This document shows positions 43,606 to 64,000 of a stretch of 64,000 bases of DNA, one piece after another. A model generated the notes under the pieces. The model ran no database searches. It was not told the DNA's origin and was given only the letters and a program-made list of their open reading frames with translations. Every line of letters starts with the position of its first letter. The first letter of the stretch is position 1. Where the stretch lies: contig JAKJER010000003.1 of NCBI GenBank assembly GCA_022705325.1, positions 181,419 through 245,418 of the forward strand. The letters are read 5' to 3'. Source of the stretch: Planctomycetota bacterium (GTDB lineage Bacteria; Planctomycetota; Phycisphaerae; SM23-33). Position numbers and translations under genes: made by a program.

Positions 43606-43741
43606 CCGCCCAGGGGCGAGAGAGGGTTTCGATGGAATTTCACGCCGACGCGCCAAGCAATTCGCCGCAGCAGCGTTAACCATATAACAGAAGTTGGGCG
43701 GCACCGAGGCCGCCGGACGCGAGACAGGAGAAAGGAACACA

Positions 43742-45029: not shown

Positions 45030-45101
45030 TCGCAGGCATGCCGCACTCCCTGGACCGCAGACCCATGCAGCAACCGGCAAGAAAGGAATCGCACAAGTCC
45101 G

Positions 45102-45593: not shown

Positions 45594-46303
45594 AGCGGGG
45601 CGGCTTCACACTCTTCGAGGCCCTGTTGGCCATTGGATTGTCCATCGGCATCGTCGGCGGGACGATGGCCCTGTACCAGCAGGCCGTCATGATCCGCCAA
45701 CGCATCAGCGAGGACCTCGAGGTCCTGACGGCCGAGCGGATCATCATGGACCGCATGACGCAAGAGATGCGTGCCGCGATCGTCTACCCGTTCCTTGGCT
45801 TTGGCCTGGAAGGCCAGGCCGACAGCATCACGTTCATGACCGCGACCGTCCCGGGCCCGGCTGCCTGGGCGGTTCGATCAGGATCCGAAGACCCCGTCCC
45901 ACCGGAGACGGACCTGCAACTGGTGACGTATCGCATGCGAACGTACGAGGATGACTACGGCATGCTCCAGGTCGCGGGGATCGAGCGAAGCTGCCAGCGG
46001 ATCCTGTCCTCCCCCACCGCCCAGGAAGGGGCCGACGTGTCCACCGTCCTGCTGACCCCCTACATTCAGCACATGCAGTTCGCCTTCTTTGACGGATCAG
46101 GCTGGACCAACATCTGGCAGGACAAGGGGCTCCCCCTGGCCGTCGAGGTGACGATGGGTTTCCCGCCCCTGCCCGAAGAGGTCGAGGCCCAGGATTATCC
46201 CTACCCGGTCTTTCGGCGCATGATCTACCTGCCCGGCGCGACCACCTCGCTCCAGGGCCCGCTCATCCGCGGGCTGGGCGGACGGAGAGGAGGGGGACGA
46301 TGA
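45590..46303 (+). CDS. Minor pseudopilin (GspJ-like)
   Basis: MKRGGFTLFEALLAIGLSIGIVGG canonical prepilin N-terminus. Its start overlaps the upstream gene by ATGA. 237 aa. Confidence 0.65.
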   Translation: MKRGGFTLFEALLAIGLSIGIVGGTMALYQQAVMIRQRISEDLEVLTAERIIMDRMTQEMRAAIVYPFLGFGLEGQADSITFMTATVPGPAAWAVRSGSEDPVPPETDLQLVTYRMRTYEDDYGMLQVAGIERSCQRILSSPTAQEGADVSTVLLTPYIQHMQFAFFDGSGWTNIWQDKGLPLAVEVTMGFPPLPEEVEAQDYPYPVFRRMIYLPGATTSLQGPLIRGLGGRRGGGR

Positions 46304-46461
46304 TGATTGCTGATTACGGATCGCGGATTGCCGATTGCAGACGATTGACGATTGTCGATTGTCGATTCTCGACTCGTCCTCGGTGTCCCAGCGTCCAGTC
46401 GCGAGTTGGGAATCGAAGATCGCATACGGAGAATTCCGCAGTCCGTGATCCGCAGTCCGCA
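46300..46461. repeat. Intergenic short-repeat region: a run of cgattg(c/t/a) heptamer-like repeats (about 7 copies) followed by the 10-nt direct repeat ccgcagtccg x2, immediately before the gspK start
   Basis: Read directly: gattgctgattacggatcgcggattgccgattgcagacgattgacgattgtcgattgtcgattctcgac ... ccgcagtccgtgatccgcagtccgcaATG. Confidence 0.4.
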
Positions 46462-47865: not shown

Positions 47866-48070
47866 TCGCGGATGCAGGAGACACAAGCGAAGAAAGGCCC
47901 GGCGCAGCAGGCGGCGGAGCGACGCAGTTCAGATGGCACATGGGAGCCCTTGCTGCTTTGCGGAACCGCCCCGAGGCGATTGTGTCTCTTTGAGGCCCTA
48001 AGACGTCGAATTTCCTTCCCGGTCCTGCGTTTAACTTGAACAGGATGCGCATGGACGCTGGAGATCGAGA

Positions 48071-50029
48071 ATGTCGGTTCTGTCGGGCGTGAAAAAGCTG
48101 GTGTCCGGTTTGCCGAGGCGGTTCACCGCGGTGGACTTCGACTCGCGCCAGATGCGCATCGTCCACGCCGAGCACGTGGGTGGGCGCATGCGGGTGCTCA
48201 AGCTGCATCAACTGGCCATGCCGCCGGAAACGGACCTGTCCAACGCCCAGTTGGTCGGACAGGTCCTGGGCAAGGGCATCCGCGATCTGGGGCTGTCCGG
48301 AACGGGCGTGCTGATGAATGTGCCCCGCGGACAGGCGGTGCTCAAGCCCCTCACGCTCCCCGCGCAGACTCCGCGACAGGAACTGCCAGCCATGGTCCAG
48401 TTCCAGATGGAGAAGGAACTCCCCTTCCGCCCCGAGGAAGCGGTTATCGACTTCACCATGGCTGAGCATTTCGACGCGGTCGCCAGCGCCGAACTCAGCG
48501 CCGCCGGCGCGGGCGTCAGCCTGTTGGTGTCGGCGGTGCGCCTGCCTGTCGTCGACTACTATCGCCGCGTCGCCGAAGCCGCGGGAGTCAAGCTCGCTCG
48601 CCTGGGGCTGAGACCCTACGCCAGCATTCAGTGCGTCGATGCCTGCACCCTGCGGGCGGAGAGCGAGACGGTCGCCATCGTCCACGTCACCCCGGACGAG
48701 ACGGAGATCAACGTCCTCCTGGGCGGGGGCCTGACGTTCAGCCGCTCGGCCGTCGTCACCGTCCTGCCCCCCAAGACCGGCAGCGACCCGGCGGTCAAGG
48801 AGACCGTAGACGCTCTGGCCACCGAGGTCGCCCGGAGCCTCCAGAGCTACCAGGCTGTCCAGGGCGGCAAGAAGGTCGACGCCATCCTCGTCGCCGGCGG
48901 GACGGGCATCGAGTCGCGGCTGGCCAGCCACCTGGCGCAGCGCCTGCTGACCAAGTGCGAGATATTCCACCCCGGCCCGGCCCTCGGCGTGCACAGCGAT
49001 GCGCCGGAGACCTCCGCCTTCATTGCGGCCCTTGGGCTGGCCGTCGGGCACTGCAGCAAGATCCTGCCTTTCGACTTCCTCGCCCCCAAGCGCCCCGTGG
49101 TCCGGCGCGATCTCAAGAAGATCCGCCGCATCGCCGCCCTGGCGATGGCCGGCGTTGTCCTCCTGGGCGCCGGCATCGCCTTCACCGCTCACCTCCAGGC
49201 CAAGCGGACCGTCCTGCAGAACCTTCGCAACAAGGTTGCCTCCGCACAGAAGGAGAACAAGGACGTCAAGGCCCTGCAGAAGCGGGTGAAGGCTTTCGAC
49301 ACGTGGCTGTCCGACAGCCGCAACTGGCTCGATCACTGGACCTATCTCAGTTGTCTCTTCCCGCCCTGCCAAGACGCTTATATCTCCGACTTCCGCGTCA
49401 ACCGCAGCGATGGCTCGATCAGCTTCATCGTCAAGGCCCGTGAGGCCGAAATCATCACCGACCTCGGAAAACGCCTCACCGAAGCCGGCTACGAGTTCCG
49501 CGCCGGGCGCGAGACCGCCACCGAGCAGGACCGTTACGGGTACCTCCACGCCGCCGACATGAAGGTGATCCTCCCGCCGAACCTGGAGATGAACCTGGCC
49601 AACATGGAGAAGCCCAAGCGCCCGGTCGACGACTCTTCCCTGGAGGACTTTCTCCGGCCCGGCTACAAGCCTGTGGGTTCGCCGAACCTGCGTCCGCCTG
49701 AAGGCTCCCCCCCCTCCGCCTCCGGCCCGGCGCCCTCGTCGTTGCCATCGTCACCGGAAGCGCCCGAGGCGCCCGCAGCTCCGACGGCGGCATCGCCTCC
49801 TCCTCAGCCCGCCGACGGATACATCGGAACCGACGGCAAGACCTACACGGGCCGGCTCGCCGTCGACCGCAAGCAGCACGAGAAGACGACGGAGCTGTAT
49901 TGGCAGAAGAAGGTGCGAGACCGCGAGAGAGAGAGCCAGCGAGAGGTCGAGAAGAAACGCGAGTTGGAGAAGGCGCGCGAGCGGGAACGCGAACGACGCT
50001 CCAGCCGCCGGGGGGACGGCAATGAATAA
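48071..50029 (+). CDS. GspL-like assembly protein: PilM-like actin-fold cytoplasmic domain, TM helix and PilN/GspL-like periplasmic domain, ending in a Pro-rich and highly charged (RDRERESQREVEKKRELEKARERERERR) tail
   Basis: PilM/FtsA-like N-terminal region (about 330 aa). TM IAALAMAGVVLLGAGIAFTA. Periplasmic domain and low-complexity C-terminus. 652 aa. Confidence 0.7.
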   Translation: MSVLSGVKKLVSGLPRRFTAVDFDSRQMRIVHAEHVGGRMRVLKLHQLAMPPETDLSNAQLVGQVLGKGIRDLGLSGTGVLMNVPRGQAVLKPLTLPAQTPRQELPAMVQFQMEKELPFRPEEAVIDFTMAEHFDAVASAELSAAGAGVSLLVSAVRLPVVDYYRRVAEAAGVKLARLGLRPYASIQCVDACTLRAESETVAIVHVTPDETEINVLLGGGLTFSRSAVVTVLPPKTGSDPAVKETVDALATEVARSLQSYQAVQGGKKVDAILVAGGTGIESRLASHLAQRLLTKCEIFHPGPALGVHSDAPETSAFIAALGLAVGHCSKILPFDFLAPKRPVVRRDLKKIRRIAALAMAGVVLLGAGIAFTAHLQAKRTVLQNLRNKVASAQKENKDVKALQKRVKAFDTWLSDSRNWLDHWTYLSCLFPPCQDAYISDFRVNRSDGSISFIVKAREAEIITDLGKRLTEAGYEFRAGRETATEQDRYGYLHAADMKVILPPNLEMNLANMEKPKRPVDDSSLEDFLRPGYKPVGSPNLRPPEGSPPSASGPAPSSLPSSPEAPEAPAAPTAASPPPQPADGYIGTDGKTYTGRLAVDRKQHEKTTELYWQKKVRDRERESQREVEKKRELEKARERERERRSSRRGDGNE

Positions 50030-51098
50030 GCGCGAGAAGACGATGGCTGGCCTGACCGCCGCCATGGCGGGGATCTTCCTGGGTTTCCTGACGATCAACG
50101 GCTTCGTGCTCAAACCGCTGCAGAAGATGGATGTCGACGCCCAGAAGCTCAGCGGGCAACTGGCGAGCTTGCAGCGAGAGAATGCAGCCCGCAAGAGCCT
50201 CGAGCCGCGTCTCAAGGAGTTGGTGTCGCGCTGCTTCGGCGGCGACGAACTCAAGGCGGGCGAGGAACTGCGGGCCCGGCTGGTGACGCTGATGGACCAG
50301 GCGGGGCTGTCCACCGAGAAGCGTCTGCTGAACCCGGTCACCGGACAGTCGGTCAGTGGCGCGTACAAGGAGATCGGACGGCGGGTACAGGTCAGCGGGA
50401 AGCTCGGCAACGCCGTCGACTTCCTCTATTTGCTCAATGCAGAGCCGCACCTGCACCGCCTGGACTCGCTCAGCCTCACACCCGCCCAGGGAGGCACCGT
50501 GGAGTTGAACCTGACCTACTCCACGCTCGTGCCAGCGGAGGGCTTGCCAGCCTCCAAGGACATCAAGCCGCTTCCCACGCAGCCCGCGCCCAACCTGCGA
50601 GAAGGCGAGCGGACACTGTACGATCCGATCGCGTCGCGAGATCTTCTGCGCCCGTACATCAAGCGCCCCCCGCCGCCTCCCCCGGTGCCGCAGCCCGTGC
50701 CCGCTGTTGCACGCCGCCATGATCCGCCCCCACCGCCTCCCCCGCCGCCAAAGACCAGCAGCGAGGGACGCTATCGCCTGGTCCTCATGCCGATGGCGCC
50801 GGGAGAGCCGTTCTCCGTGCTGGACCAGAGCACGCGCCAGACCTACTCCTACAACATCGGGCAGTTCCTGGGCGGCGGAAAGGTCGTCATGGTCGACTTC
50901 CGCCCCTGTCCCCTCCCGGACGACCCCGACACGATCTCGCCCAGCAGGCTCATTCTCCAGATCGGCGACGCCTACTGGGCCGTCGAGTATGGACAGACCC
51001 TCTCGGCCAAGCGACAATTGCGGAAGGATGAATTGCCTCCTGAATTGTCTGGCGCCGCAGCAGCGCCGGCCAGTCAACCGGCCTCGCCAGCCTCCTGA
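50022..51098 (+). CDS. GspM/PilO-like bitopic assembly protein with a poly-proline segment (hypothetical)
   Basis: Overlaps the upstream stop (ATGAATAA). N-terminal TM LTAAMAGIFLGFLTINGFVL plus coiled coil, then a PPPPPPVPQPVP...PPPPPPPPK tract. Assignment is by position and topology only. Confidence 0.45.
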   Translation: MNKREKTMAGLTAAMAGIFLGFLTINGFVLKPLQKMDVDAQKLSGQLASLQRENAARKSLEPRLKELVSRCFGGDELKAGEELRARLVTLMDQAGLSTEKRLLNPVTGQSVSGAYKEIGRRVQVSGKLGNAVDFLYLLNAEPHLHRLDSLSLTPAQGGTVELNLTYSTLVPAEGLPASKDIKPLPTQPAPNLREGERTLYDPIASRDLLRPYIKRPPPPPPVPQPVPAVARRHDPPPPPPPPPKTSSEGRYRLVLMPMAPGEPFSVLDQSTRQTYSYNIGQFLGGGKVVMVDFRPCPLPDDPDTISPSRLILQIGDAYWAVEYGQTLSAKRQLRKDELPPELSGAAAAPASQPASPAS

Positions 51099-51350
51099 GC
51101 CGGAGGCAGAGCAAGGTCTTACAACCGATGCATCAACGCGCACCGCCCCCGGAGAGGGTGCGTGCCCCAGGAGGGGCCACTGCAAGCTCCCCAGGTCGCA
51201 GTCCAAGCCCCTGTATCCTGTGGGACAGTTGGCCCCAAACGCGGTGCAAAATGCGGCAGTCCGGGCGTATGATCGCCTGGTTCCTGCGTTAGACATGAGA
51301 TGAACGAACTCAAGCCTTCTTGCGTGTGTAAGGCTTCAGGAGATCAGACG

Positions 51351-54300
51351 ATGCGAACTAACTGGATACTGGCTTTCGCGGTTATCTCCGCCCTTGCCGT
51401 GGCCCTGACTGCCCAGACGACCAAACCGTCGCCGCAGCCGGCCACCCAGCCAGCCGCCGCACCGACCACCCAGCCCGCCGTCGCTGCCGCGCCGACCACC
51501 AAGCCGGCCGTTGCCGCTGCGCCGACTACCCAGCCCGCCGTCGCTGCCGCACCGACCACCAAGCCGGCCGTTGTCGCTGCGCCGACTACCCAGCCCGCCG
51601 TCGCTGCCGCACCGACCACCAAGCCGGCCGTTGCCGCTGCGCCGACCACCCAGCCCGCCGTCGCTGCCGCACCGACCACCAAGCCGGCCGTTGCCGCTGC
51701 GCCGACCACCAAGCCCGCCGTCGCTGCCGCGCCGACCACCAAGCCGGCCGTTGCCGCTGCGCCGACCACCCAGCCCGCCGTCGCTGCCGCGCCGACTGTG
51801 AGACCGGCCGGGACGTACAGTAAGGACTCACCCAAGATCTTCCTCTTCCAGTTTAGCGGCTGTCCGTATCATGAGGTGATTCGCAAGTTCGCCCAGGCCT
51901 GTAAGAAACCGTTGTTGGGGGAAGTCGAGATTCCGGGCAGTCTCACGTTCTTCGACAGCGAACCTTACTGCTACGAAGAAGCCCTGGACACCCTCAACAT
52001 CCTCTTGAACATGCGGGGCTTCGCCCTGATCGAGTTCAAGCGGTATCTCCGCGTGGTGCAGGTAACCGAACTGGCCAACAACGCGAGCATCCTCCGCGGA
52101 CTGGACCAGGTCGGGGACATCCGGAACGAGCAGGTCGTCACCGTCTTGCTTCCGGTGGAGAATCTCGATCCGGAGGCCGCCTCCAAAGCCATCGTCCGCA
52201 TGGTGTCTTCGTACGGCTCGATCACTCCCATGCCTCGAGGCAAGGGTGTTCTCATCACCGACCGTCTGTCCAGCGTTCGCCGCATTCAGGACATGATCCA
52301 GATGCTGGACGCCGAGCGGGCGACCGCCAGCGACATCAAGACCATCCAGATCAAGAAGGCTTCGGCCAAGTCCGTCGCTTCGGTCATCAATCAGGTCCTG
52401 GGCGGTCCGTCTTCCAGCCCCGAACGCAGGTCGTCATCGGCTCCGCCGGCCTCTTCGGGTGACAGCGTGTCAGCCTACAGCGATGACCGCACCAATCTCC
52501 TGTTCCTGCGCGGTGTGGGCGCCAAGCTGCAACTGGCCGAGCAACTCGTGGAGAAGTTGGACAGCGAAGCGACCAGCGATGTCAGCGACATGCGCCTGAT
52601 CGAGTTGAAGAACGCCCGCGCCGAGGACGTAGCCAAGACCATCAGCGAAGTCATGCCCCGCGACCAGATCCAGGTGGCGGGCCCGCCCAGCAGCGACTCC
52701 AGCCGACGCCACTATCCCGTCACCGTGGCCAAGGGCAAGGTCGTCGCCGAGCCGGAGACCAACCGCCTGATCGTCTCCGCTCCGCTGGACGTGATGGTCA
52801 AGATCGAGGAACTGATCAAGAAGCTCGACGTGGCCAGCGACACCAGCGGCGGGGTCAAGGTCCTGCGTCTCAAGACCGCCGACGCCGCCCAGCTTGCCCC
52901 TATTGTCTCGGCCGCGGTGGCCAAGCAAACCCTCGCCGCTGGCGGGGCGAGAAGGGGAATGGTCACTGTCACCGCAGACAGCCGCACGAATTCTCTGGTG
53001 ATCGTGGGCCCGGCCGGCGACATCCAGGCAGCCGAGAAGCTCGTCGCCGAACTCGACCGCCCGCTGGACAAGGAAGAGGAACGCCAGATCCGCATCATCC
53101 AGTTACCCTCGGGCAACGCCGAGAAGCTGGCCAGTGCCATCTCCCGCGTGCTGGACAGCTCCCCGTCTTCGCATTACGGCTCCAGCCGCTATGGGTCGTC
53201 CTCGTCCCGCTCCCAGACCAGCCGCCCGCGTATCGAGGCCGACTCCGGCACCAACAGTCTGCTGATCTCGGCTGCCCCAAGCGACTGGCCGCAGATCGAA
53301 TCCATCCTGAAGCAGATCATTCCGCCCCCACCGCCTGACCAGCCCGCGGCCGCCACGCCGCTGGCCTTGACGACTCCGGTGCTGCGCCACGTGCCGCTCA
53401 AGTTCGCCAAGGCGGAGGATCTCGCCACCACGCTGCTGTCCGTGTTCGGCACGCGCCGGCGCAGCGAGGCCGTTTCCATCATCATCACCCCGTCGGCCCG
53501 CACCAACAGTCTGCTCATCTCGGCCGCCGAACCCGACCAGATCGCCATGGGGGAGTTGATCAAGACTCTCGACGTCGACTCCAGCGAGAAGCTCGACCCG
53601 GTCCGCATCGTCGAACTGAAGGTGGCTGACGCCGCCAAGGTCGCCGACGCCATCCAGGCCGTCCTGCCCCCGCGCCCCGTCGGGCGACGCGGCGAGACCC
53701 ACCAGGTCACCATCCACGCCGACACCGCCACCAACACCCTCTTTATCCGCGCCGGCGAGGCCGAGCAGAAGCTCATCGACGAGGTTATAGCCCGGATGGA
53801 CAAGGGCGCAATCGACCCCACCATTGTCCGCGAGACGCGAATCATCGCCCTCAAGTTCGTCCCTGCCAGCCAGATGGCGGCCAGTGTCCAGCAGTTCTTC
53901 CAGTCGGCCGGCGGCTCGCCCTCCAGCCCATACGGCTCGTCGTATTATCGCCGCCGGAGCTACTCCTCCGCCTCCGGAGAAAAGGCCTTCGATTCGCTGG
54001 TCGTCGCCGCCGCACCGGGAGACCAGGCCCTCATCGTGGAAGGACCCAAGAAGAAGGTCGACGAGGTCGCCGCCTTCGTCGCCAAACTCGACACCCAGGA
54101 CACCGGCCAGGCGACAATTGTCCGCGTCTATACCCTCAAGGAAGCCGACGCCGGCGAAATCTCCCGGACCCTGTCGGCCACTTTCTCCAAGAAGTGGCAG
54201 GACCAGAAGCGACGCGATCCGAAGCTGGCCGACCCCGAGCCGTCGTTTGAAATCAACGCCGGCGCCAACCAGCTCATCATCGCCGCCACCGAGAAGCAGC

Positions 54301-57300
54301 TTACCGAGATAGACGCGTTGATCGCCCAACTCGAGAAGGCCCCGGCTGTGACCAGCCAGACCAAGACCTTCCCCCTCAAGCACGCCAAGGCCGAGGAACT
54401 GGTCAACGTCCTCCAGACGATGCTGACCTCAGGCGCTCCCAGCCCCTACAGCGGCTATGCGTACAGTCGGCGATCCAGAAGCGTCGAGGGCGAGTTGAAG
54501 ATCGCCGCCATCGCCGCCTCCAATTCGCTGGTCATCCAGGGCCCGCCAGCCAAGATGGCCAAGGCCGAGCAACTCATCGCCTCCTTCGACACGCCCCAGG
54601 CGGGCGAGTCCTCGCTGATCAGCATCGTGCCGCTCAAGGCCGCCTCCGCCTCCCAACTCGCGGTCACCCTCAAGAACATGCTGCCTCCCCAGAGTCGAGA
54701 GCGAGAAAGCGAGTTGGTCATTCAGGCGGACACGGCGAGCAACTCCCTGCTCATCCGCGCCAGCGCCACGCAGCGAAAGATCATCGACGAACTGATCCCC
54801 AAGCTCGACGTCGAGTTGGCCGAAGGCACCCGCGAGATGCGGGTCGTGCCCGTAATGTTCGTCTCGGCCTCTCAGATCGCCCAGACCGTGTCGCAGGTCT
54901 TCCGCGGCCAGAACGGGACATCTTCGTCGTCTTCCTCCTATCGACGATCGTACTATCGGTCGTACGACGCCCCGCAGGCGGGTCCGGGCAGCGACGAGAT
55001 TCTTATCACGCCCGCCCCCAACGACCGCAGCATCGTCATCGAAGCCCCCAAGAAGAAGATCGAGCCGATTGTTCAGCTCATCGCAACCCTTGACGTTGCC
55101 GAAGGCACCGCCAAGGCCAACCAGATCCGCACCTACCAGCTCAAGAACGCCAACGCAGCCGAAGTTTCCCGCGTTCTTTCGGGCATGTACACCCAGCGAA
55201 CCAGCGGATACGGCGAGGCCCCTTCCGCGCGAGGCGGCTCGGGCCCGACCGCCACCCCGCCCAAGTTCGACCACGACACCGCGACCAATCAGCTCGTCGT
55301 CTCGGCCAGCGACGAACAGTTCGTCGAGATCGACGCACTGATCAAGAAGCTGGAAGAGGCGCCCCAACTGGCCACCCAGACCAAGACCTTCCCGCTCAAG
55401 CACGTGCGGGCGAGCGAGGTCCTGCCGGTGCTGACCAACCTGCTGAGCGAAACGCCCGCCTCCACCCCCGAGGGCTACGCGGGCTACTCGCCCTACTCCT
55501 CCCGTCGGCGCTACGGAGCGTCTGCGTCGTCGGAGCTTCGCCTGGCCGCCCTCCCCGGCGCCAATAGCATCGTCGCCCAGGGCCCGCCGCCCAAGATGCT
55601 CAAGGTCGAGCAACTCATCGCTTCCTTCGACACGCCCCAGGCGGGCGAGTCCTCGCTGATCACGATGGTGCCGCTGAAGAACGCCTCGGCCGCCAAACTC
55701 GCCGAGACCCTCAAGTCCATGCTGCCCGCCGCCTCGCGAGACAAGCCAAGCGAACTGGTCGTCCAGGCCGACACCGCGACCAACTCTCTGCTCATCCGCG
55801 CCGACGGCACCCAGCGGAAGATGCTCGACGAGTTGATCCTCAAACTCGACGTCGAGGTCGTCCAGACCGCCCGCGAAATGCGGGTCGTTCCGGTGCAGTT
55901 CGTCTCCGCCGCCCAGATCGCCCAGACCGTCTCCCAAGTCTTCCTGAAACAGGACGCTTCGTCGTCCTCCTACCGGCGATCCTCGTACTACTACCGCTCG
56001 TATTACCGCTCCTACGACGAGCCCGAAGAACCCACCCGCACCGGCGCGGATGCCGACAAGATCGTCGTGACGGCCTCCCCCAACGACCGCTCCGTCATCG
56101 TCGAGGCCCCCAAGCTGAAGATCGAGCCTGTCGTTCAGCTCATCACGACCCTGGACGTGCCCGAGGGCACGGCCAAGCCCCAGCAGATCCGCACCTACCA
56201 GCTCAAGAACGCCAACGCAGCTGAAACCGCCCGCATCCTGAGCAATATGTACGCCCAGCGTCAGAACGGCAGCGTCAGCAGCTACGGCGAGGAAGGCAGT
56301 CCAAGCCGGACCGCCAAGTCGAAGATCCCCGCGCCGAAGTTCGACCACGACGCCGGATCCAATCAGCTTGTCATCTCGGCCAACGACGAGCAGTTCGTCG
56401 AAATCGAAGCCCTGATCAAGACGCTGGATGAGACGCCCCAACTGGCCACGCAGACCAAGACGTTCCCGCTCAAGCACGCCAGGGCCAGCGAGATCGTCCC
56501 GCTGCTGACCAGCCTGTTGAGCGACACGCCCTCGTCCCCGGCGGTCGGCAGCTACTCGCGGTATTCATCGCGAAGTCGCTACGGCGCGTCGGCGACCGCC
56601 GGAGAGGTCCACGTCGCCACCCTGCCCGGGACCAACTCTGTGATTGTGCAGGGCCCGCCGGCCAAACTCACCCAGGCCGAGCAGTTGATCTCCACGTTCG
56701 ACACGCCCGAAGCGGGCGGCTCGTCGCTGGTGACGGTGATCCCGCTCAAGAACGCCTCGGCCGTCACGCTCGCCGAGACGTTGCGGAGCATGCTGCCCCC
56801 GCCCGTGCGGGGAAGGCCCGAGGAGATCGTCATCCAGGCCGACAGCCTGACCAACTCGCTGTTGGTCCGAGCTCCCGAAGACCAGCGCAAGACTATCGAC
56901 GACCTCATCGCCAAGCTCGACGGCGGCCTGGCCGATAATGCCCAGACCCGCGAGATGCGGATCATCCCGGTCAAGCACCTGTCGGCCGCCCAACTCGCAG
57001 AGACCGTCAGCGTCATGTACCAGCAACTCCGCGAGGCCCGGCGCGGGCTCCGCGCCCGTCCCGTTGACCCGGGCGAGCAGGTCGTCATCACCCCCTCTCC
57101 CAATGACCGCTCGATCGTCGTCGAAGCCCCCAAGAAGAAGGTAGAGGAGATCGCCAAGCTGGTGGCCGATCTGGACACCGAGGAGAACAGCTTCCAGATC
57201 CTCGTGCGGACCTACCAGCTCAAGACCGCCAGTGCATCGGAGCTGGCCCGTTCCCTGACCAACATCTTCGCCGCCAAAGTCGCCGGCTCCGCCTCGCCCG

Positions 57301-60300
57301 GCCGGCGCCCCGGCGCCGTGCCCAATCGCGCCGGTCCGCAGCCCACCTTCGACGTCGACGCCGCCAGCAACCAACTCCTGGTCGCCGCCACGTCTGAACA
57401 ACTCATCGAGATCGAGCAGCTCATCCAGAAGATGGACAATCCGGAGGTGCAGGCCGTCCAGACCCGCATCTTCCCCATCCAGCACGCCAAGGCCGACGAG
57501 CTGGTCACTCTCCTTCAGACGATGCTGAATGAGAATCCCCCCTCGGCCGCCTACGGCAGCTCGGCGTACTACTCGCGACGCTACCGCCCGACCGGGTCGT
57601 CCAGTGGAGACGACATCCGCATTTCCACGCTGCCCGGCACGAACAGCATTGTCGTCCAGGGGCCGCCCAACAAGCTTACGCGGGCCGAACAGCTCATCAA
57701 GAGCTTTGACACGCCCGAGGCGGCCGTCGCCGCCACCGTCACCATCATCCCCATCAAGAACGCCTCCGCGGCCACCCTGGTCGAGACCCTGCGGGCCATG
57801 CTCCCGCCGGTCAAGGGTCGGGCCGAGGAAGTGTTCATCCAGGCCGACATCCTGACCAACTCCGTGCTCATCCGCGCTCCCGAGACCCAACGGAAAATGG
57901 TCACCGAGTTGGTCGCCAAGCTGGACACCCAGAGCGAGCTTACCCGCGAGATGCGCGTTATCCCGCTCACCTTCACCAGCGCCACCCAACTCGCCAGCGC
58001 CCTGCAGGTCATGTACCAGCAGCACATGGCCACCCGGGGCGGCCCGCGGGCCAAGCCGGTGGACCCGGCCGAGCAGGTCATCTTCACCCCCGCGCCGCAC
58101 GACCAGGCCCTGGTCGTCGAGGCGCCCAAGAAGAAGATGGAGGAGATCGCCGCCCTCATCGAGAAGCTGGACGTCCAGGAAAGCCCCGACCGCCTCACGG
58201 TACGCACCTACCAGTTGGCCGAGAACTCCGACGCGGTCGAGACCGCCCGTACGCTGGCCAAGCTCTTTACCGAGACCCGCGTTCGCCCGGGCGCGATCGC
58301 GGGCAATCAACAGCAGCCCCGCTTCGAGGCCGACGGAGTGGGCAACCAGCTCATCATCGCCGCCACGCCCAAGCAGTTCGAGGAGATCGAGCCGCTGCTG
58401 AAGAAGCTCCAGGACTCCGCCCAGCTTGCCGTGCGAAGCAAAACCTACCAGCTCAAGTTCGCCAAGGCCGCCGACATCGTCCAGATGCTCCAGTCCATGC
58501 TGACCGGGACCACCGGCCGGTCGCGGTACTCCGCCTATGGGGACCCGGCCGCCGCGTCGAGCGAGGTCCGTGTCGCTGCCGTCAACGGCAGCAACAGTGT
58601 CTTCGTCCAGGGGCCGCCGGCCAAGCTGGCCATGGCCGACGAACTGATCCGCACCTTCGACACCGAGCAGGCGGCTGCCCGCAGCGTGATTCAGATCATC
58701 AAGCTCAAGAACGCCCAGGCGGCCTCGCTGGCCCAGGCCGTCAACGCCACGCTGGAGGCCCGGGCCGCCCGCCGTCCTTACGGCGAGCAGGCCGGCGCCG
58801 ACGACGGAAAGGTCACCGTCACGCCCGAGCCCAACTCCAACAGCCTTCTGGTCCGCGGGCCGCTGGCCGAGATTCCCTCCGTGCTGGAGATGATCCGCGA
58901 CCTGGATGAGGGCGGGACGAGCGCCAAGAGCGAAGTCCGCATCTTCCCGATCAAGAACTCCGACGCATACGAGCTTTCGACAACCCTGGGCAGACTGGTG
59001 CAGGACATGATCGCCCAGCAGACGCGCGCTCGCGGCGACGTGCCCGTGCCGGCCTTCAGCATCGCCGCCGACACCCGCACCAACTCGCTCATCGTCTCCA
59101 CCACCTCCGCCTACTTCGCCATCGTCGAGCAACTCCTGGAGAACCTCGACAAGGAACAGCCCATCCGCGACGTTCAGTACATCGCTCTGACCAACGCCCA
59201 AGCCGTCGACGTAGCCGAGAAGGTCAACGCCCTCTTCACCGACCGCAAAGGGTCCGACAAGCCTGTCATCGAGGCGGAGGAGTACACCAATTCCCTCACC
59301 GTCATCGCCAAGGCGGTGGACCTGCTGACGATCCAGGAAATGGTGGAGAAGCTCGACAAGGGACGGCGCGAACTTCAGGTCCGGGTCGTCCCCATCAAGC
59401 AGATCAAGGCCGAACGGATGGCCGAGATCATCCAGCGGGTATACGGGCAGACGACGAGCAGCCGTGTCATCGTCACCGGCCAGTCCCCCCCGACGCGGAT
59501 GGGGATCGAGTTGCCCGCCCCTCAACCGACGCCCGCTCCGCCCCCGCCGGCGGGCAAAGGCCCCGCCGCTTCGGCCAAGCCGTGGACCGGCAGCGTTCCT
59601 CGCCCGGCGACGCAGCCAGCCACCCGGCCCACCACGCGACCGGAGAGCGCCCCAGCCGCCAAGGACGATGGCGAGTTGGAGGAGAACCCTCCGATCACCA
59701 TCGCCATCGACCATAAGAGCAACACGCTGATCATCTCGGGCCCGCCCCAGGAGATCGACAACATCCAGGGCCTCATCGACCAGATGATGACCTCGCCCGA
59801 GGAGGCCGAGGCTGAGTTCCGGACCTATAGGATCGAGCACGCCGACCCGGTGGTTCTGGCCCAGACGCTGGAGGACATGTTCAACCCCAAGCCCAAGGTA
59901 GTCTACCTCCAAGCCCGTACCGGACAGCCGGCGCAGGCCCCGGCTGAACCGCCCCCGCCCATTACTGTACAGGCCGACGCCCGCACTCGCTCCATTGTCG
60001 TCCGGGCGAAAGTCATCGACTTCGACATGATCGAGCCGCTGATCAAGTACCTCGACCAGGAGACTTCCGCCCACAGCGAACTGCGCGTCTTCCCGCTGGA
60101 GAACACCGAGGCCGGCGAGGTCGCCGACAACCTCAAGGAGATGTTCAACCTGGCCCAGAAGGGGACCGCGGCCCAGCCCGCGCCCCAGCCTCAGGCCGGG
60201 CGCACGGCCCAGCGCGGCCGGGCCGACCGTGTCCGCCAGGTCATGGACCTGCAGGTCGCTGCCGGCGGCTCAGCCAAGGTCGATCCCTATTCGGCCATCT

Positions 60301-63300
60301 CCATCTCCGCCAACCGCAACACCAACAGCGTGGTCGTCTCGGCGCCTAAGGAAGTCATGAAGCTCGTCGAGTCGATCATTCAGGAGTTGGACCAGTCGGC
60401 TCTCCAGTCCAAGACCGTGGTCCGCATGTACCCGCTCAAGCACGCCGAGGTCACGCCGACGGTGTCGGCCCTGCGGGAGATCTTCTCGCAGGCGGCCCGC
60501 ACCAGCCCGCTGCGCTCGTCCCGCACCGGTTCGACGCCCGGAGCCTCGCTGCGAGACGCCCCGATCGTCGTCACCGGCGACGAGGTCGGCAGGCAGATCA
60601 TCGTGTCCGCCCCCGTCACCCAGCATGAAACGGTCGCCAAGGTCATCCAGGACATCGACACCGCCCAGGGAGTCGGGCAGATCCTGGTGCAGGTCTACCG
60701 CATCCAGAACGCGGAGGCGACCAGCGTCGCCGCTTCACTCAGTACCATGTTCTCGTCGACGGCCTCCGCCGCCGGCACGGGGCGGCGTGTCCGCACTGCC
60801 ACCGGAGGCGGCGGCCCCAGGATCAGCGCCGACGCCAGCAGCAACTGCATCGTGGTGCGGGCCGTCCAGGAGGACCACGCCGAGATCACCCGTCTGCTGG
60901 AGGAACTGGACGCCTCGCCGGCCGACAAGTATCCCGTGCGCCGCATCCCCATCCAGAACGCAAGCCCCACCGTCCTGGCCACCAACCTGCGGGCGGTCTT
61001 CGCCGGCCGTTCAGGCACGGCTGGCGGGCGGCGAGGCGGTGCCGCCGGACGCGACGGACTGGTCATACAGCCTGACGAGGACGCCCGCATGCTCCTGGTC
61101 CGAGCGGACGAGGAGACCTACAAGAAGATCGAGGAGATGGTCCAGGCCCTCGATGCCGTCAGCGTCTCCGACAAGCTCCAGACCGTCATCATCCCGCTCG
61201 AACACGGGCAGGCGACCAGCGTGGCCGCCGCATTATCCCAGGCGTTCGGCGCCTCCGCACGCGGGGGACGCCGCTCCACCAGCCCCGAAGACGAAGTCCG
61301 CATCGCTGCGGAGACGTTCACCAACTCCATCCTGATCACCGCCAGCGAGAAGAATCTGCTGAAGATCCAGGCGATGGTCCAGAAGCTTGAGAAGGACACG
61401 GCCGGCGGGGTCAAGAGCGAGTTCCTTGTGCTCACCAACGCCAAGGCCGACGACCTGGCGACCGTCCTGGCACGCCTGGCCGGCGCGAGCGGACGCGGCG
61501 CCCGGGGCGCAGCCGGGACCGGCGGGGTCACCGTGGCCGCCGATGCCGCCGCCAACGCCCTGGTGTTCTCCGGACCGGCCGCCGAGGTCGCGAAGCTCTC
61601 GACGATGGCCAAGCAACTCGACCAGGCGGCTCAGGGCTCGGCTGTCCAGGTGTTCATGATCCCGTTGAAGAACAACATCGCGTCGGAGGTGGCAGCCGCC
61701 ATCCAGCAACTCCACGCCCAGCAGGCGGTGCGCCGCGGCGGGGCCGCTTCCCGCGAACCGCTCTCGGTCACGTTCGACGACTCCGCCAACGTCGTCGTCC
61801 TGTCCACCACCAAGCGACAGTATGACGAGATTTCACAGTGGGTGACCAAGTTCGAGGAACTGAAGGTCACGCGCGAAGCCCCGAAGATCATCGCCCTGGT
61901 CAACAGCGACCCGCAGGAGATCGAGCGGGCCCTTCGCCAGATGTTCGCCGGCGGGTCGGCCCCTGGAGGGCGCGGCTCGCGGACCGTTCGCACCACCGGC
62001 AAGGTCGAGATCGCCTCTCTGCCACAGCAGCGTGCCCTGCTGGTCAAGGCTGGCGCCGAGGACTTCAAGCTCATCAGCGATCTGGTCAAGTCGCTGGACG
62101 AGTCGGCCCCGACCGCCATGCCCAAGCAGACAATGGTCGCGCTGAAGCACGCGCCGGCCGCCAGCGTGGCCTCCGCCTTGACGGCGGCCTTCGGCCCCGG
62201 CAGGCGAGGGCGCACCGCCCTGGCCCGACCCGAGGATGAGGTCCGCGTCGTGGCCGAGGCGGCCTCCAACTCCGTCATCATCACCGCCGACGAGAAGAAC
62301 ACGACCGCCGTGCTGAGCCTGATCGCCAAGCTGGACACCGACGAGGCCTCGGGCAAGGCCCAGTTCCTGATCCTCAAGAAGGCCAAAGCCGTCGAGTTGG
62401 CCCGCGTGCTCAGCGCGGCCACGTCGCGGGGCGCCCGCAAGCCGGGCCAGCAGCCGCTGGTAGTCACGGCGGATGCCGCCAGCAACGCCCTGGTCCTCTC
62501 GGGCCCGCCCAACGACATCGAAGCCGCCATCGCCATGGCCACCAAGCTGGACGAGGCCGCCACGGCGGGCATCTCGGAAGTCTTCCTGATCCCGCTCAAG
62601 ACGGGCCAGGCCAGCGAGGTCGCCGCCACCGTACAGCAGATCTACCAGCAGCAGGCCGCGGCGACGCGCTCGGCGGGGCGGACGATCGACCCCCTCGCCG
62701 TCTCGGCTGATGACTCGGCCAACGTGATCATCCTGGCCACCACCAAGGTCATGCATGACCAGGTGAACCAGTGGATCGGCAAGGTCGAAGAGATGAAGGT
62801 CGGCCAGGGCGAGCCGCGCCTGGTCACGCTCGAGAACGCCGATGTGGCCGAGGTAGAGAAGGCCGTGCGGGCGTTGTTCATCACTGTCCGGGCGACCGCC
62901 GGGCGTGGCGCCCGCGGGGCGGCCGGGGCCACCGGCGCCCGTATCGAGGTGGCTTCCCTGCCCCAGCAGCGGGCCTTGCTGATCAAGTCCGGCGAGGAAG
63001 ACTTCAAGGCCATCAACGACCTGATCATGGCACTGGACGCAGCCGCCGTCACCCGCCTGAACAAGCAGACGATCATTCCGCTGAAGCACGCCCAGGCCAC
63101 CAGCGTAGCTCCGGCTTTGCAGTCGGCATTTCAGCAGCAGATTCGCGGGCGCGGAGCGGCGGTGAAGCCAGAAGATGAGGTCCGCATCATCGCCGAGCCG
63201 ATCTCCAACACATTGATCGTGGCTGCCAGCGACAAGAACACGGTCCTCGTGCAGGGCCTGGTGGCCAAGCTGGATACGGACGAGGCCTCGGGCAAGGCCC

Positions 63301-64000
63301 AGTTCCTGATTCTCCAGAAGGCCAAGGCGGTCGAACTGGCCAAGGTGCTGTCTACGGTGTCGGCCAGTCGCAGCCGTAAGCCCGGCCAGCAACCGCTGAT
63401 CATCACCGCCGACGTTGCCAGCAACGCCTTGGTCATGTCGGGCTCCGCGACCGAGATGGACGCGGCGATCAAGATGGCGCAGGAGTTGGACGGCGCCGCC
63501 AGCGAGAGCCTCGCGCAGGTATTCCTGATCACGCTCAAGAGCGGACAGGCCAGCGACGTGGCTGCCACGGTTCAGCAGATTTATCAGCAGCAGACGGCGG
63601 CCGCCCGCACCGCGGGCCGCTCCATCGATCCCCTGGCGGTCTCGGCGGATGACTCCGCCAACGTGCTCATCCTCTCAACCACCAAGGCGATGCATGACCA
63701 GGTGAACCAGTGGGTGCAGAAGGTTGAGGAGATGAAACTCAACCAGGAAGCGCCCCAGTTGGTCACCCTCGAGAACGCCGACGTCCAGGAAGTGGAGAAG
63801 GCCATCCGACAGATCTTCGTCTCCGGGAAGGTCAGCCGAACGGGAAAGGCCATCGGGAAGATCGAATTGGCCGTGTTGCCCCAGCAGCGAGCCTTGTTGA
63901 TCAAGGCGGGCGAGGAGGACTTCAAGGCCATCAACGAGTTGATCAAGTCCCTGGACGCTGCGGCCGTTGCCGCCAAGCACCAGCAGACGCTGATTACACT
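51351..64000 (+). CDS. Giant secretin-like protein, 3'-partial (more than 4,216 codons open to the window end). Signal peptide, Pro/Thr/Ala tandem linker, a secretin N0-like domain, and 40 or more tandem secretin-N (N1-type) domains. The secretin pore domain is presumably beyond the window.
   Basis: ATG at 51351 with an AGGAG RBS 8 nt upstream. Frame 0 was checked at 51351, 54291, 59400 and 63951 and is the same throughout. The ORF track lists no plus-strand frame-0 ORF anywhere in 51351-64000, so the frame has no stop codon. The recurring motif (F/Y)xLK(N/H)AxAxE(L/V)...TNSL(L/I)(I/V)(R/S)Axxx...(L/I)IxKLD, about every 80-95 aa, is the secretin_N (PF03958-type) signature of GspD/PilQ N1-N3 domains. 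The first globular domain (FLFQFSGCPYHEVIRKFA...NMRGFALIEFKRYLRVVQV) resembles N0. Codon usage and amino-acid composition are gene-like. The minus-strand ORFs across it have antisense-type G/R/L/V-rich composition. Confidence 0.75.
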   Translation, partial: MRTNWILAFAVISALAVALTAQTTKPSPQPATQPAAAPTTQPAVAAAPTTKPAVAAAPTTQPAVAAAPTTKPAVVAAPTTQPAVAAAPTTKPAVAAAPTTQPAVAAAPTTKPAVAAAPTTKPAVAAAPTTKPAVAAAPTTQPAVAAAPTVRPAGTYSKDSPKIFLFQFSGCPYHEVIRKFAQACKKPLLGEVEIPGSLTFFDSEPYCYEEALDTLNILLNMRGFALIEFKRYLRVVQVTELANNASILRGLDQVGDIRNEQVVTVLLPVENLDPEAASKAIVRMVSSYGSITPMPRGKGVLITDRLSSVRRIQDMIQMLDAERATASDIKTIQIKKASAKSVASVINQVLGGPSSSPERRSSSAPPASSGDSVSAYSDDRTNLLFLRGVGAKLQLAEQLVEKLDSEATSDVSDMRLIELKNARAEDVAKTISEVMPRDQIQVAGPPSSDSSRRHYPVTVAKGKVVAEPETNRLIVSAPLDVMVKIEELIKKLDVASDTSGGVKVLRLKTADAAQLAPIVSAAVAKQTLAAGGARRGMVTVTADSRTNSLVIVGPAGDIQAAEKLVAELDRPLDKEEERQIRIIQLPSGNAEKLASAISRVLDSSPSSHYGSSRYGSSSSRSQTSRPRIEADSGTNSLLISAAPSDWPQIESILKQIIPPPPPDQPAAATPLALTTPVLRHVPLKFAKAEDLATTLLSVFGTRRRSEAVSIIITPSARTNSLLISAAEPDQIAMGELIKTLDVDSSEKLDPVRIVELKVADAAKVADAIQAVLPPRPVGRRGETHQVTIHADTATNTLFIRAGEAEQKLIDEVIARMDKGAIDPTIVRETRIIALKFVPASQMAASVQQFFQSAGGSPSSPYGSSYYRRRSYSSASGEKAFDSLVVAAAPGDQALIVEGPKKKVDEVAAFVAKLDTQDTGQATIVRVYTLKEADAGEISRTLSATFSKKWQDQKRRDPKLADPEPSFEINAGANQLIIAATEKQLTEIDALIAQLEKAPAVTSQTKTFPLKHAKAEELVNVLQTMLTSGAPSPYSGYAYSRRSRSVEGELKIAAIAASNSLVIQGPPAKMAKAEQLIASFDTPQAGESSLISIVPLKAASASQLAVTLKNMLPPQSRERESELVIQADTASNSLLIRASATQRKIIDELIPKLDVELAEGTREMRVVPVMFVSASQIAQTVSQVFRGQNGTSSSSSSYRRSYYRSYDAPQAGPGSDEILITPAPNDRSIVIEAPKKKIEPIVQLIATLDVAEGTAKANQIRTYQLKNANAAEVSRVLSGMYTQRTSGYGEAPSARGGSGPTATPPKFDHDTATNQLVVSASDEQFVEIDALIKKLEEAPQLATQTKTFPLKHVRASEVLPVLTNLLSETPASTPEGYAGYSPYSSRRRYGASASSELRLAALPGANSIVAQGPPPKMLKVEQLIASFDTPQAGESSLITMVPLKNASAAKLAETLKSMLPAASRDKPSELVVQADTATNSLLIRADGTQRKMLDELILKLDVEVVQTAREMRVVPVQFVSAAQIAQTVSQVFLKQDASSSSYRRSSYYYRSYYRSYDEPEEPTRTGADADKIVVTASPNDRSVIVEAPKLKIEPVVQLITTLDVPEGTAKPQQIRTYQLKNANAAETARILSNMYAQRQNGSVSSYGEEGSPSRTAKSKIPAPKFDHDAGSNQLVISANDEQFVEIEALIKTLDETPQLATQTKTFPLKHARASEIVPLLTSLLSDTPSSPAVGSYSRYSSRSRYGASATAGEVHVATLPGTNSVIVQGPPAKLTQAEQLISTFDTPEAGGSSLVTVIPLKNASAVTLAETLRSMLPPPVRGRPEEIVIQADSLTNSLLVRAPEDQRKTIDDLIAKLDGGLADNAQTREMRIIPVKHLSAAQLAETVSVMYQQLREARRGLRARPVDPGEQVVITPSPNDRSIVVEAPKKKVEEIAKLVADLDTEENSFQILVRTYQLKTASASELARSLTNIFAAKVAGSASPGRRPGAVPNRAGPQPTFDVDAASNQLLVAATSEQLIEIEQLIQKMDNPEVQAVQTRIFPIQHAKADELVTLLQTMLNENPPSAAYGSSAYYSRRYRPTGSSSGDDIRISTLPGTNSIVVQGPPNKLTRAEQLIKSFDTPEAAVAATVTIIPIKNASAATLVETLRAMLPPVKGRAEEVFIQADILTNSVLIRAPETQRKMVTELVAKLDTQSELTREMRVIPLTFTSATQLASALQVMYQQHMATRGGPRAKPVDPAEQVIFTPAPHDQALVVEAPKKKMEEIAALIEKLDVQESPDRLTVRTYQLAENSDAVETARTLAKLFTETRVRPGAIAGNQQQPRFEADGVGNQLIIAATPKQFEEIEPLLKKLQDSAQLAVRSKTYQLKFAKAADIVQMLQSMLTGTTGRSRYSAYGDPAAASSEVRVAAVNGSNSVFVQGPPAKLAMADELIRTFDTEQAAARSVIQIIKLKNAQAASLAQAVNATLEARAARRPYGEQAGADDGKVTVTPEPNSNSLLVRGPLAEIPSVLEMIRDLDEGGTSAKSEVRIFPIKNSDAYELSTTLGRLVQDMIAQQTRARGDVPVPAFSIAADTRTNSLIVSTTSAYFAIVEQLLENLDKEQPIRDVQYIALTNAQAVDVAEKVNALFTDRKGSDKPVIEAEEYTNSLTVIAKAVDLLTIQEMVEKLDKGRRELQVRVVPIKQIKAERMAEIIQRVYGQTTSSRVIVTGQSPPTRMGIELPAPQPTPAPPPPAGKGPAASAKPWTGSVPRPATQPATRPTTRPESAPAAKDDGELEENPPITIAIDHKSNTLIISGPPQEIDNIQGLIDQMMTSPEEAEAEFRTYRIEHADPVVLAQTLEDMFNPKPKVVYLQARTGQPAQAPAEPPPPITVQADARTRSIVVRAKVIDFDMIEPLIKYLDQETSAHSELRVFPLENTEAGEVADNLKEMFNLAQKGTAAQPAPQPQAGRTAQRGRADRVRQVMDLQVAAGGSAKVDPYSAISISANRNTNSVVVSAPKEVMKLVESIIQELDQSALQSKTVVRMYPLKHAEVTPTVSALREIFSQAARTSPLRSSRTGSTPGASLRDAPIVVTGDEVGRQIIVSAPVTQHETVAKVIQDIDTAQGVGQILVQVYRIQNAEATSVAASLSTMFSSTASAAGTGRRVRTATGGGGPRISADASSNCIVVRAVQEDHAEITRLLEELDASPADKYPVRRIPIQNASPTVLATNLRAVFAGRSGTAGGRRGGAAGRDGLVIQPDEDARMLLVRADEETYKKIEEMVQALDAVSVSDKLQTVIIPLEHGQATSVAAALSQAFGASARGGRRSTSPEDEVRIAAETFTNSILITASEKNLLKIQAMVQKLEKDTAGGVKSEFLVLTNAKADDLATVLARLAGASGRGARGAAGTGGVTVAADAAANALVFSGPAAEVAKLSTMAKQLDQAAQGSAVQVFMIPLKNNIASEVAAAIQQLHAQQAVRRGGAASREPLSVTFDDSANVVVLSTTKRQYDEISQWVTKFEELKVTREAPKIIALVNSDPQEIERALRQMFAGGSAPGGRGSRTVRTTGKVEIASLPQQRALLVKAGAEDFKLISDLVKSLDESAPTAMPKQTMVALKHAPAASVASALTAAFGPGRRGRTALARPEDEVRVVAEAASNSVIITADEKNTTAVLSLIAKLDTDEASGKAQFLILKKAKAVELARVLSAATSRGARKPGQQPLVVTADAASNALVLSGPPNDIEAAIAMATKLDEAATAGISEVFLIPLKTGQASEVAATVQQIYQQQAAATRSAGRTIDPLAVSADDSANVIILATTKVMHDQVNQWIGKVEEMKVGQGEPRLVTLENADVAEVEKAVRALFITVRATAGRGARGAAGATGARIEVASLPQQRALLIKSGEEDFKAINDLIMALDAAAVTRLNKQTIIPLKHAQATSVAPALQSAFQQQIRGRGAAVKPEDEVRIIAEPISNTLIVAASDKNTVLVQGLVAKLDTDEASGKAQFLILQKAKAVELAKVLSTVSASRSRKPGQQPLIITADVASNALVMSGSATEMDAAIKMAQELDGAASESLAQVFLITLKSGQASDVAATVQQIYQQQTAAARTAGRSIDPLAVSADDSANVLILSTTKAMHDQVNQWVQKVEEMKLNQEAPQLVTLENADVQEVEKAIRQIFVSGKVSRTGKAIGKIELAVLPQQRALLIKAGEEDFKAINELIKSLDAAAVAAKHQQTLIT
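51459..51803 (+). repeat. Coding tandem repeat: about 11-12 copies of a 30-nt unit (A-P-T-T-[QK]-P-A-V-A-A), that is, a 60-nt Q/K-alternating unit x about 6, forming a Pro/Thr/Ala linker after the signal peptide of the giant gene
   Basis: Near-perfect nucleotide repeats accacc(c/a)ag(c/g)c(c/g)gccgt(c/t)gc(t/c)gc(c/t)gc(g/a)ccg were read directly. The repeat is in frame with the gene. Matching ORF-track repeats: 51511-51801 (+) and 51344-51835 (-). Confidence 0.8.

Follow-up and report, generated by a model that had tools for sequence, protein, structure and literature searches.

A giant gspD-type secretin gene with about 75 predicted N-domains from an uncultured Phycisphaerae-type planctomycete

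How many periplasmic N-domains can a single secretin carry, and what would an array of several dozen of them do in a cell envelope? This question is raised by a gene in a stretch of 64,000 nucleotides (nt) from a Planctomycetota genome (GenBank assembly GCA_022705325.1, contig JAKJER010000003.1, positions 181,419 to 245,418), which is called the window here. The gene has no stop before the window ends, and a preliminary description made from the letters of the DNA had read it as a secretin-like gene of more than 40 N-domains at the end of a type II secretion system (T2SS) operon. We show here, by sequence comparison, that it is the gspD gene of this T2SS, encoding the outer membrane secretin, in an uncultured Phycisphaerae-type planctomycete. 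The parts of its product follow each other in the order putative signal peptide, Pro/Thr/Ala linker, N0, about 75 N-domains and C-terminal secretin pore. Both ends are GspD-like, and the alignments show the array between them as an expansion of the N1-N3 region, roughly 25-fold.

One continuous gene and its full-length product

From the ATG at position 51351 the plus-strand frame runs through 4,216 codons without a stop and is open through position 63998 to the window end. The closest in-frame stop 5' of this ATG is at position 51270. A stop-free run of this length has a chance probability of about 1e-40 at the gene's own base composition, which bears out the earlier claim of a single continuous gene. 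Codon positions 1, 2 and 3 have 64, 47 and 87% GC, respectively, as is typical of a genuine gene where the genome has 66% GC. The remaining part of the gene lies beyond the window. A public protein from a 349-kb NCBI contig (P0213, 6,885 amino acids (aa)) agrees with the window product at each of its 4,216 residues (100% identity) and thus represents the full-length product. P0213 was found in the cluster of the top match of the family search described below. The same cluster holds P0208 (6,805 aa, GenBank OQB85541.1), annotated as 'Type II secretion system protein D precursor [Planctomycetes bacterium ADurb.Bin126]'. Labels of this kind, Planctomycetes or Phycisphaerae, on identical or near-identical database proteins support the planctomycetal origin that had been suspected from sequence hallmarks. 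P0208 stems from an independent assembly of a metagenome-assembled genome (MAG) and is colinear with P0213, with 99.8% identity over 6,789 aa and 4 gap positions; hence the copy number of the units is no artefact of assembly, a doubt that the preliminary description had raised itself.

Could the frame still be something other than one functional gene, i.e. a mis-assembled repeat, a pseudogene or several fused genes? Certain units past the window are 90-100% identical to units inside it, which is a risk in short-read assembly, and two relatives have irregular genes. In the loci L001/L004 (ENA ERZ25039500 contig_22862, a 108-kb metagenome contig) the same operon is followed by about 50 units that tile continuously, and L004 ends in the pore domain PF00263 (149 bits), with a Glt symporter and GH95/GH4 glycosidases encoded downstream. 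Yet this gene of about 15 kb is called as more than 12 open reading frames (ORFs). Single units are divided between two frames there, as frameshift sequencing errors would give, so that errors and not separate genes account for the splitting. The super-repeat DNA copies inside the window are mutually just 61-85% identical, and a collapsed or inflated assembly repeat is therefore rejected. Adding to this are the improbable length of the stop-free frame, the strong third-position GC bias, the colinear independent assembly, at least 115 complete homologues and long unbroken ORFs in 27 genomes. The artefact reading is effectively refuted, and we give it next to no weight. The second irregular relative, L007 (9275-19180), has an ORF of 3,302 aa that stops behind the 33rd unit and encodes no pore domain, for which a frameshift, a splitting of the gene or a truncated variant might be the reason. 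Within the giant gene itself lie an antisense ORF of 1,169 aa (56565-60074, minus strand) and several more of 400-680 aa, which are the usual shadow ORFs of a gene with 87% GC at third positions and no evidence of genes.

Architecture of the protein and its operon

The N-terminus MRTNWILAFAVISALAVALTAQ shows, by eye, the charge, hydrophobic core and small residues expected of a Sec signal peptide. A linker of about 130 aa separates it from N0 (Table 1). P0208 is 76 aa shorter at the linker end, which variation in linker copy number or a different start call could explain. In Pfam, N0 stays below the threshold (17.7 bits, cutoff 27). On the NCBIfam GspD model TIGR02517, the N-terminal head aligns at model positions 9-334 with 219.6 bits, compared to 87.7 bits for PilQ. 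An AlphaFold model of the head, built from a 25-sequence alignment, has a predicted local distance difference test score (pLDDT) of 89.4. In Foldseek it matches the GspD N0-N1-N2 structure 3ezj (E 1.4e-9) as well as XcpQ N0-N1; against assembled PulD (6hcg) it gives a TMq of 0.73 with a root mean square deviation (rmsd) of 3.0 Å, and against isolated N0 (4jtm) a TMt of 0.83 with an rmsd of 1.7 Å. Judged by alignment and predicted fold, an N0 domain is present in the head, followed by a first N1-type unit (aa ~262-325).

Behind the head, Pfam recognises Secretin_N (PF03958) in 46 stretches of the 4,216-aa window product (1,520.8 bits; cutoff 28.2). With a hidden Markov model (HMM) built up iteratively from a single unit we locate 46 units at aa 330-4203, to which the N1-type unit of the head is additional; the linkers between units are uniformly 8-10 aa long. 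The mean pairwise identity of the units is about 28%, and most of them are therefore old and diverged. In an AlphaFold model of four units (aa 1001-1340, single sequence) each unit is predicted to fold as beta-alpha-loop-beta-beta-alpha, with cores at pLDDT 72-87 and disordered loops. The best 39 PDB fold matches of this model are all periplasmic domains of secretins (GspD, ExeD, XcpQ N0-N2, InvG, PilQ), while KH domains come up only with E values above 0.008. This search rules out the alternative that the repeats have a KH or BON fold. In P0213 the array comprises 74 HMM units, about 75 when the N1 unit of the head is counted.

In many units the loop between helix 1 and strand 2 is of low complexity and rich in Ser, Tyr, Arg and Gly, e.g. 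SSSSSSYRRSYYRSYD, and is predicted to be disordered (pLDDT<50); examples are found at 54918-54995 (aa 1190-1215) and 55962-56030 (aa 1538-1560). The loop inserts are richer than the cores in Ser (13.7 vs 7.3%), Tyr (5.0 vs 1.2%) and Gly (10.7 vs 4.3%). It is a speculative idea that such disordered loops might line the lumen as a selective filter. One unit (aa 2678-2814), near the border of two super-repeat blocks, is divided into halves by a Pro-rich insertion that may serve as a hinge.

The C-terminal tail of P0213, 349 aa long, bears the classic secretin motifs. It matches the Secretin family PF00263 over the entire model (positions 1-169 of 169, 187.7 bits), and about 95 aa follow the pore domain. 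Head and tail were scored as separate pieces on TIGR02517, which has a cutoff of 351 bits; the last 535 aa reach 326.2 bits (positions 161-600), compared to 216.5 bits for PilQ and 148.4 bits for SctC. In a ranking of PDB sequences the pore is nearest to the solved PulD, ExeD and GspD. At both ends PilQ scores below GspD, and an AMIN domain has no Pfam match in the 4,216-aa window product. The monomer has a mass of 734 kDa.

These results support most of what had been read from the window before. The signal-peptide-like start, the Pro/Thr/Ala-rich linker and the N0-like domain stand, the latter now backed by the NCBIfam alignment and the predicted fold, and the repeats are predicted to have the secretin N fold rather than that of another family. 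The secretin assignment, which had been drawn from repeats and operon context, gains the pore domain of the identical protein and of L004. The count of more than 40 N-domains described a real array and was too low for the whole gene. The series gspE, F, G, H/I/J-like, K, L-like and M-like directly upstream is also found as proposed, based on Pfam matches, prepilin motifs and transmembrane (TM) helices.

Table 1. Features of the T2SS operon and the giant gspD gene, in positions of the window
Feature	Position	Strand	Evidence or remark
gspE, secretion ATPase, first gene of the operon	40409..42184	+	Pfam T2SSE 472 bits, MshEN 79 bits
gspF, inner-membrane platform	42403..43605	+	Pfam T2SSF 189.7 bits, two stretches
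gspG, major pseudopilin	43694..44209	+	T2SSG 82.3 bits, N_methyl 25.9; GFTLVE at nt 43769
gspH-like minor pseudopilin	43995..45029	+	weak N_methyl aa 99-123; GFTLIE at nt 44301 and hydrophobic helix
gspI-like minor pseudopilin (orf163)	45102..45593	+	no Pfam match; degenerate G-ILLE and 23-aa hydrophobic helix aa 23-45
gspJ-like minor pseudopilin	45590..46303	+	T2SSJ 25.4 bits, under cutoff 28; N-terminus MKRGGFTLFE
gspK, pseudopilus tip	46300..47865	+	T2SSK_1st 43.9, T2SSK 27.1, HHH_3 50 bits
gspL-like, PilM-type cytoplasmic domain and periplasmic part	48071..50029	+	PilM_2 75.8 bits; one TM helix aa 354-373
gspM-like bitopic protein (orf358)	50022..51098	+	no Pfam match; N-terminal TM helix aa 7-25
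Ribosome-binding site AGGAG	51338..51342	+	8 nt 5' of ATG, read from sequence
Giant gspD, 5' 61% (4,216 of 6,885 codons)	51351..64000	+	no stop; Secretin_N x46; leaves window
Signal-peptide-like N-terminus MRTNWILAFAVISALAVALTAQ	51351..51416	+	sequence inspection; no lipobox Cys
Pro/Thr/Ala-rich linker, 30-nt (10-aa) tandem repeat, ~15 copies	51393..51870	+	repeat family D1, 67-96% identity
N0 domain and first N1-type unit (aa 161-330)	51831..52340	+	AlphaFold, Foldseek, NCBIfam GspD model
46 Secretin_N (beta-alpha-beta-beta-alpha) units, 8-10 aa linkers	52338..63959	+	Pfam, iterated HMM, fold model
Super-repeat block 1, four-unit (~340 aa), units 9-25	54363..58664	+	identity matrix; repeat families D2-D6
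Pro-rich insertion, ~90 aa, PAPQPTPAPPPPAGKGP…ATQPATRPTTRPESAP	59448..59720	+	HMM half-matches at model positions 1-27 and 36-73
Super-repeat block 2, four-unit (~313 aa), units 35-46 in window	61188..64000	+	identity matrix; family D4

The giant gspD is the last gene of the operon, while in classical T2SS operons gspD is located near the front. The operon begins at gspE, since the gene 5' of it is divergent (38712-40163, minus strand); the product of this gene has 483 aa and many calcium-binding motifs of the EF-hand type. A 700-aa plus-strand ORF (38223-40325) overlaps the EF-hand gene, has no family match and is probably spurious. The true start of gspG is likely the ATG at 43742, and the gspH-like ORF is probably over-extended at its 5' end, with the real start just upstream of 44301. 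The putative gspI is assigned from its position and N-terminal helix only. In 20 of 27 related loci, tblastn places a homologue of orf358 immediately 5' of the giant gene. Using Pfam, we recognised no gspC, prepilin peptidase gspO or pilotin among the operon ORFs (40409-51098); either they are encoded elsewhere, or this is a T2SS variant without them. A retraction ATPase and PilN/O/P likewise have no matches in the operon. Further away, the window contains genes for HypE-like (AIRS domains) and HypF hydrogenase-maturation proteins (17182-22199, minus strand), which would fit an anaerobic lifestyle and an origin from an anaerobic digester, the latter read from the MAG name ADurb.Bin126. The rest of the window is housekeeping, with UvrA, biotin carboxylase, PurH, an M24 peptidase, a GH3-family enzyme and PQQ/BamB-like beta-propeller proteins.

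Relatives and growth of the array

Is the giant gene a singular case? A profile of the window's own repeats was compared with 1.84 billion representative proteins, and the best 150 matches were examined. All of these are 2,149-5,532 aa long with 21-61 matched units; 128 carry the C-terminal pore domain, and 115 carry an N0-type head as well as the pore. The latter have 26-58 units (median 38) and are mutually at most 50% identical. There are, hence, at least 115 complete relatives, and they come from uncultured Phycisphaerae/Planctomycetota. All family members found stem from MAGs or metagenomes. With about 75 units the protein of the window gene is the largest among the family proteins examined, a statement that holds for these proteins, as cluster representatives can be shorter than other members.

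At least 27 species-representative genomes, all of them uncultured MAGs, carry a giant secretin. This number is a lower bound from a scan of one genome per species with a single conserved peptide pattern of the head (7-sequence alignment). Phycisphaerae, Planctomycetaceae or Planctomycetota is the label of most of the 27; a few carry the label Verrucomicrobiota or Anaerolineales. Searched with the final 416 aa of the window product, the species-representative genomes gave no relative. Where the contig allowed, the ORFs of the relatives are unbroken over 3,300-3,750 codons (33-42 units) and leave the fetched 10 kb. An upstream gspE-F-G-J-K-L-orf358 operon is common to the Planctomycetota loci, with the gene order kept in most. 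Four loci labelled Verrucomicrobia/Pedosphaera (L018, L019, L021 and L024) encode an unbroken secretin of 38-42 or more units. They have no detectable homologue of gspE/F/G/J/K/L upstream, the full 10 kb upstream being covered in L018 and L021. Upstream in L018 are a prepilin-type (N_methyl) gene, two sulfatases, a glycosyltransferase and a DsbH-like protein, and the GC content changes from 0.63 in this region to 0.53-0.55 inside the giant gene.

The characterised secretins that we found have at most about six periplasmic rings, three to six being normal, and a conserved family of 26-75 units exceeds this by an order of magnitude. The earlier statement that no characterised secretin was known with this architecture stands; the sequence itself, however, is already in GenBank as GspD and has more than 100 diverged family members. 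The giant secretin family is widespread in uncultured planctomycete-type bacteria and apparently undescribed. Genes of this kind fragment short-read assemblies and break under long-read indel frameshifts, which keeps the family hidden as many entries named 'secretin N-terminal domain-containing protein, partial'.

How the array has grown can be read from its internal similarities. In a unit-by-unit matrix the mean identity at offset 4 is 0.45, compared to 0.29 at other offsets, and two blocks of four-unit super-repeats stand out (Table 1). The copies of block 1 share 50-71% identity at the protein level and 61-85% at the DNA level, at a spacing of about 1,000-1,070 nt. Block 2 runs on past the window to unit 58 and thus comprises units 35-58; within it unit 41 equals unit 49 at 100% identity, and units 40 and 52 are 90% identical. 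The four-unit periodicity is weak or missing in other family members. We therefore rule it out as a family-wide structural module, since it is strong in this lineage only. The contrast with the other members indicates that the long array is ancestral and that four-unit modules were recently added here by tandem duplication. The family comparison shows a base array of about 30-55 units that is old and common to the whole family. The giant secretins are a clean natural case of domain-array growth by modular tandem duplication.

A candidate conduit and its place among secretins

What might so many N-domains be good for? By analogy, the giant secretin would oligomerise as other secretins do, with the pore in the outer membrane. 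T2SS secretins have about 15 copies per oligomer. The N-domains would stack as coaxial rings and form a periplasmic tube, with N0, at the end away from the pore, docked onto the GspL/M/F/E platform of the inner membrane. In this way a pseudopilus-driven machine could bring folded exoproteins as far as the outer membrane in cells in which a wide gap separates cytoplasmic membrane and cell wall. The short and uniform linkers of 8-10 aa fit a regular stack. The periplasm of planctomycetes can be greatly enlarged (PMC5394234), which would give a long conduit its logic; on a much smaller scale, this logic is used to explain the six rings of Thermus PilQ (PMC5745081). We regard this explanation as a whole, a T2SS gspD whose product builds a trans-periplasmic conduit of stacked rings, as reasonably probable.

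If so, the conduit would be large. The preliminary description had conjectured a length of some 100 nm or more. A 15-mer of the 734-kDa monomer would have a mass of about 11 MDa. In GspD structures a ring measures about 3-3.5 nm. Taking 3-5 nm per ring, from this GspD ring height and from the dimensions of the Deinococcus secretin (PMC10828601), about 76 rings would amount to a stalk of roughly 0.2-0.4 µm. The strictest version, in which about 75 stacked 15-mer rings form continuous tubes of 0.2-0.4 µm and the number of N-domains acts as a molecular ruler that sets or matches the inter-membrane distance in Phycisphaerae-type Planctomycetota, is a tentative one that we hold to be somewhat unlikely. 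Were it true, these would be by far the longest known channels from one polypeptide species and an unrecognised trans-periplasmic organelle, explaining secretion across an enlarged periplasm. Planctomycetal crateriform structures were considered as the visible form of the giant secretin and are disfavoured; they sit at close membrane contact (PMC5394234) and were described in another class.

Several points weigh against a stacked-ring T2SS conduit. The structural support comes from predictions of monomers. The pore domain lies beyond the window, and what ties it to this gene is a database protein that is 100% identical to the window product along its 4,216 aa. A closed tube of 0.2-0.4 µm needs a similarly long pseudopilus or another mode of transport, and the classical short-piston model of the T2SS does not cover it. 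GspC, the usual partner of N0, has no Pfam match among the operon ORFs, of which orf358 and orf163 match no family at all; a diverged gspC, or one encoded at a distance, may exist. Some Verrucomicrobiota-labelled relatives lack an adjoining gspE/F. Furthermore, the cited data on an enlarged periplasm come from Planctomycetia and not from Phycisphaerae (PMC5394234).

A serious rival is a tether or spacer. Here, the pore and a few membrane-proximal N-domains would act as a normal channel, and the other ~70 domains would form no closed rings; instead, 15 flexible leashes, like beads on a string, or an envelope scaffold would join the pore to the inner-membrane platform or to peptidoglycan. Such leashes could keep the connection as the width of the periplasm changes, or stabilise the envelope mechanically. 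The unit number varies from 26 to 75 in the family and is still changing by tandem duplication, which a leash would tolerate better than a matched machine. Disordered loops in many units, the Pro-rich insert of about 90 aa and the failure to find gspC in the operon ORFs point in the same direction, and a role as envelope spacer was put forward for the secretin of Deinococcus (PMC10828601). However, all characterised secretin domains of the N1-N3 type that we found are ring-forming, the short uniform linkers favour a rigid regular stack over a flexible chain, and N0 is kept at the distal end, as expected if it still docks to the platform. We therefore judge a tether unlikely on balance, though worth serious consideration.

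A weaker rival is a long sheath for a fibre, or for uptake of DNA or polymers, similar to type IV pilus or competence systems despite the GspD-like secretin. A tube of hundreds of nm suits a long filament better than a short piston, and the GspL-like protein matches PilM_2. Planctomycete fibres bind polysaccharide, and macromolecules are taken into the periplasm (PMC5394234); Thermus PilQ, the longest characterised secretin that we found, serves pili and DNA uptake (PMC5745081). Yet head and tail score best on T2SS GspD, above PilQ, the operon holds minor pseudopilins of the GspK/J/I/H type together with GspG, and there are no matches to a retraction ATPase, AMIN or PilN/O/P in the operon or the window product. 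This makes a fibre or uptake conduit improbable. The continuous conduit thus is the most likely of these readings. It bears on how Planctomycetota with an enlarged periplasm move folded proteins to the outer membrane, and on how the length of trans-envelope machines is matched to envelope geometry, for which the natural variation in unit number between species (26 to 75) offers a built-in ruler comparison.

How does the giant compare with known secretins? Canonical GspD proteins (GspD/PulD/XcpQ/ExeD; TIGR02517; PDB 5wq7, 6hcg, 5wln, 6i1x) have N0, N-domains and the PF00263 pore in the same order. They are the best sequence and fold match of the giant at both ends, and their genes likewise stand together with gspE, F, G, the minor pseudopilin genes, K, L and M. 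The differences are of number and detail: about 75 N-domains compared to three (N1-N3), 6,885 aa compared to ~650-750, a long Pro/Thr/Ala linker ahead of N0, and an operon with no recognisable gspC. We found no description of secretins with tens of N-domains in the full text of PMC and bioRxiv, the range of this search, with subscription-only literature outside it. The database holds the same or orthologous sequences (OQB85541.1, HQL76080.1, MFP4104932.1 and an IMG 'type II secretion system protein D'), and entries of the family have automatic names only, GspD or 'secretin N-terminal domain-containing protein'. A link to the giant genes near T2SS loci of Omnitrophota was considered and rejected; those encode other proteins, with gspD merely a normal neighbour (bioRxiv 10.1101/2023.11.21.568195).

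Two long secretins come closest. PilQ of Thermus thermophilus, with six stacked rings N0-N5, has been called 'exceptionally long', and its ring number has been tied to a wide periplasm (PMC5745081). Extra beta-alpha-beta-beta-alpha rings lengthen its periplasmic channel, as they would in the giant. It has six rings in 757 aa, compared to about 76 rings of a putative stack in 6,885 aa, and it has an unusual N0 and works in type IV pili and DNA uptake, whereas the giant is T2SS-type at both ends. The secretin DR_0774 of Deinococcus radiodurans (PDB 8co1) is pentadecameric and, in keeping with the thick envelope, about 350 Å high, with an 85 Å barrel and five periplasmic tiers; an additional role as 'spacer, stabilizing the cell envelope' was proposed for it (PMC10828601). 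It is among the fold matches of the repeat model. Unlike the giant, it has N0-N3 and a flange domain with accessory belt and cap proteins, and no domain array. Seen against these systems, the giant is an extreme architectural variant of the T2SS secretin and no new kind of machine.

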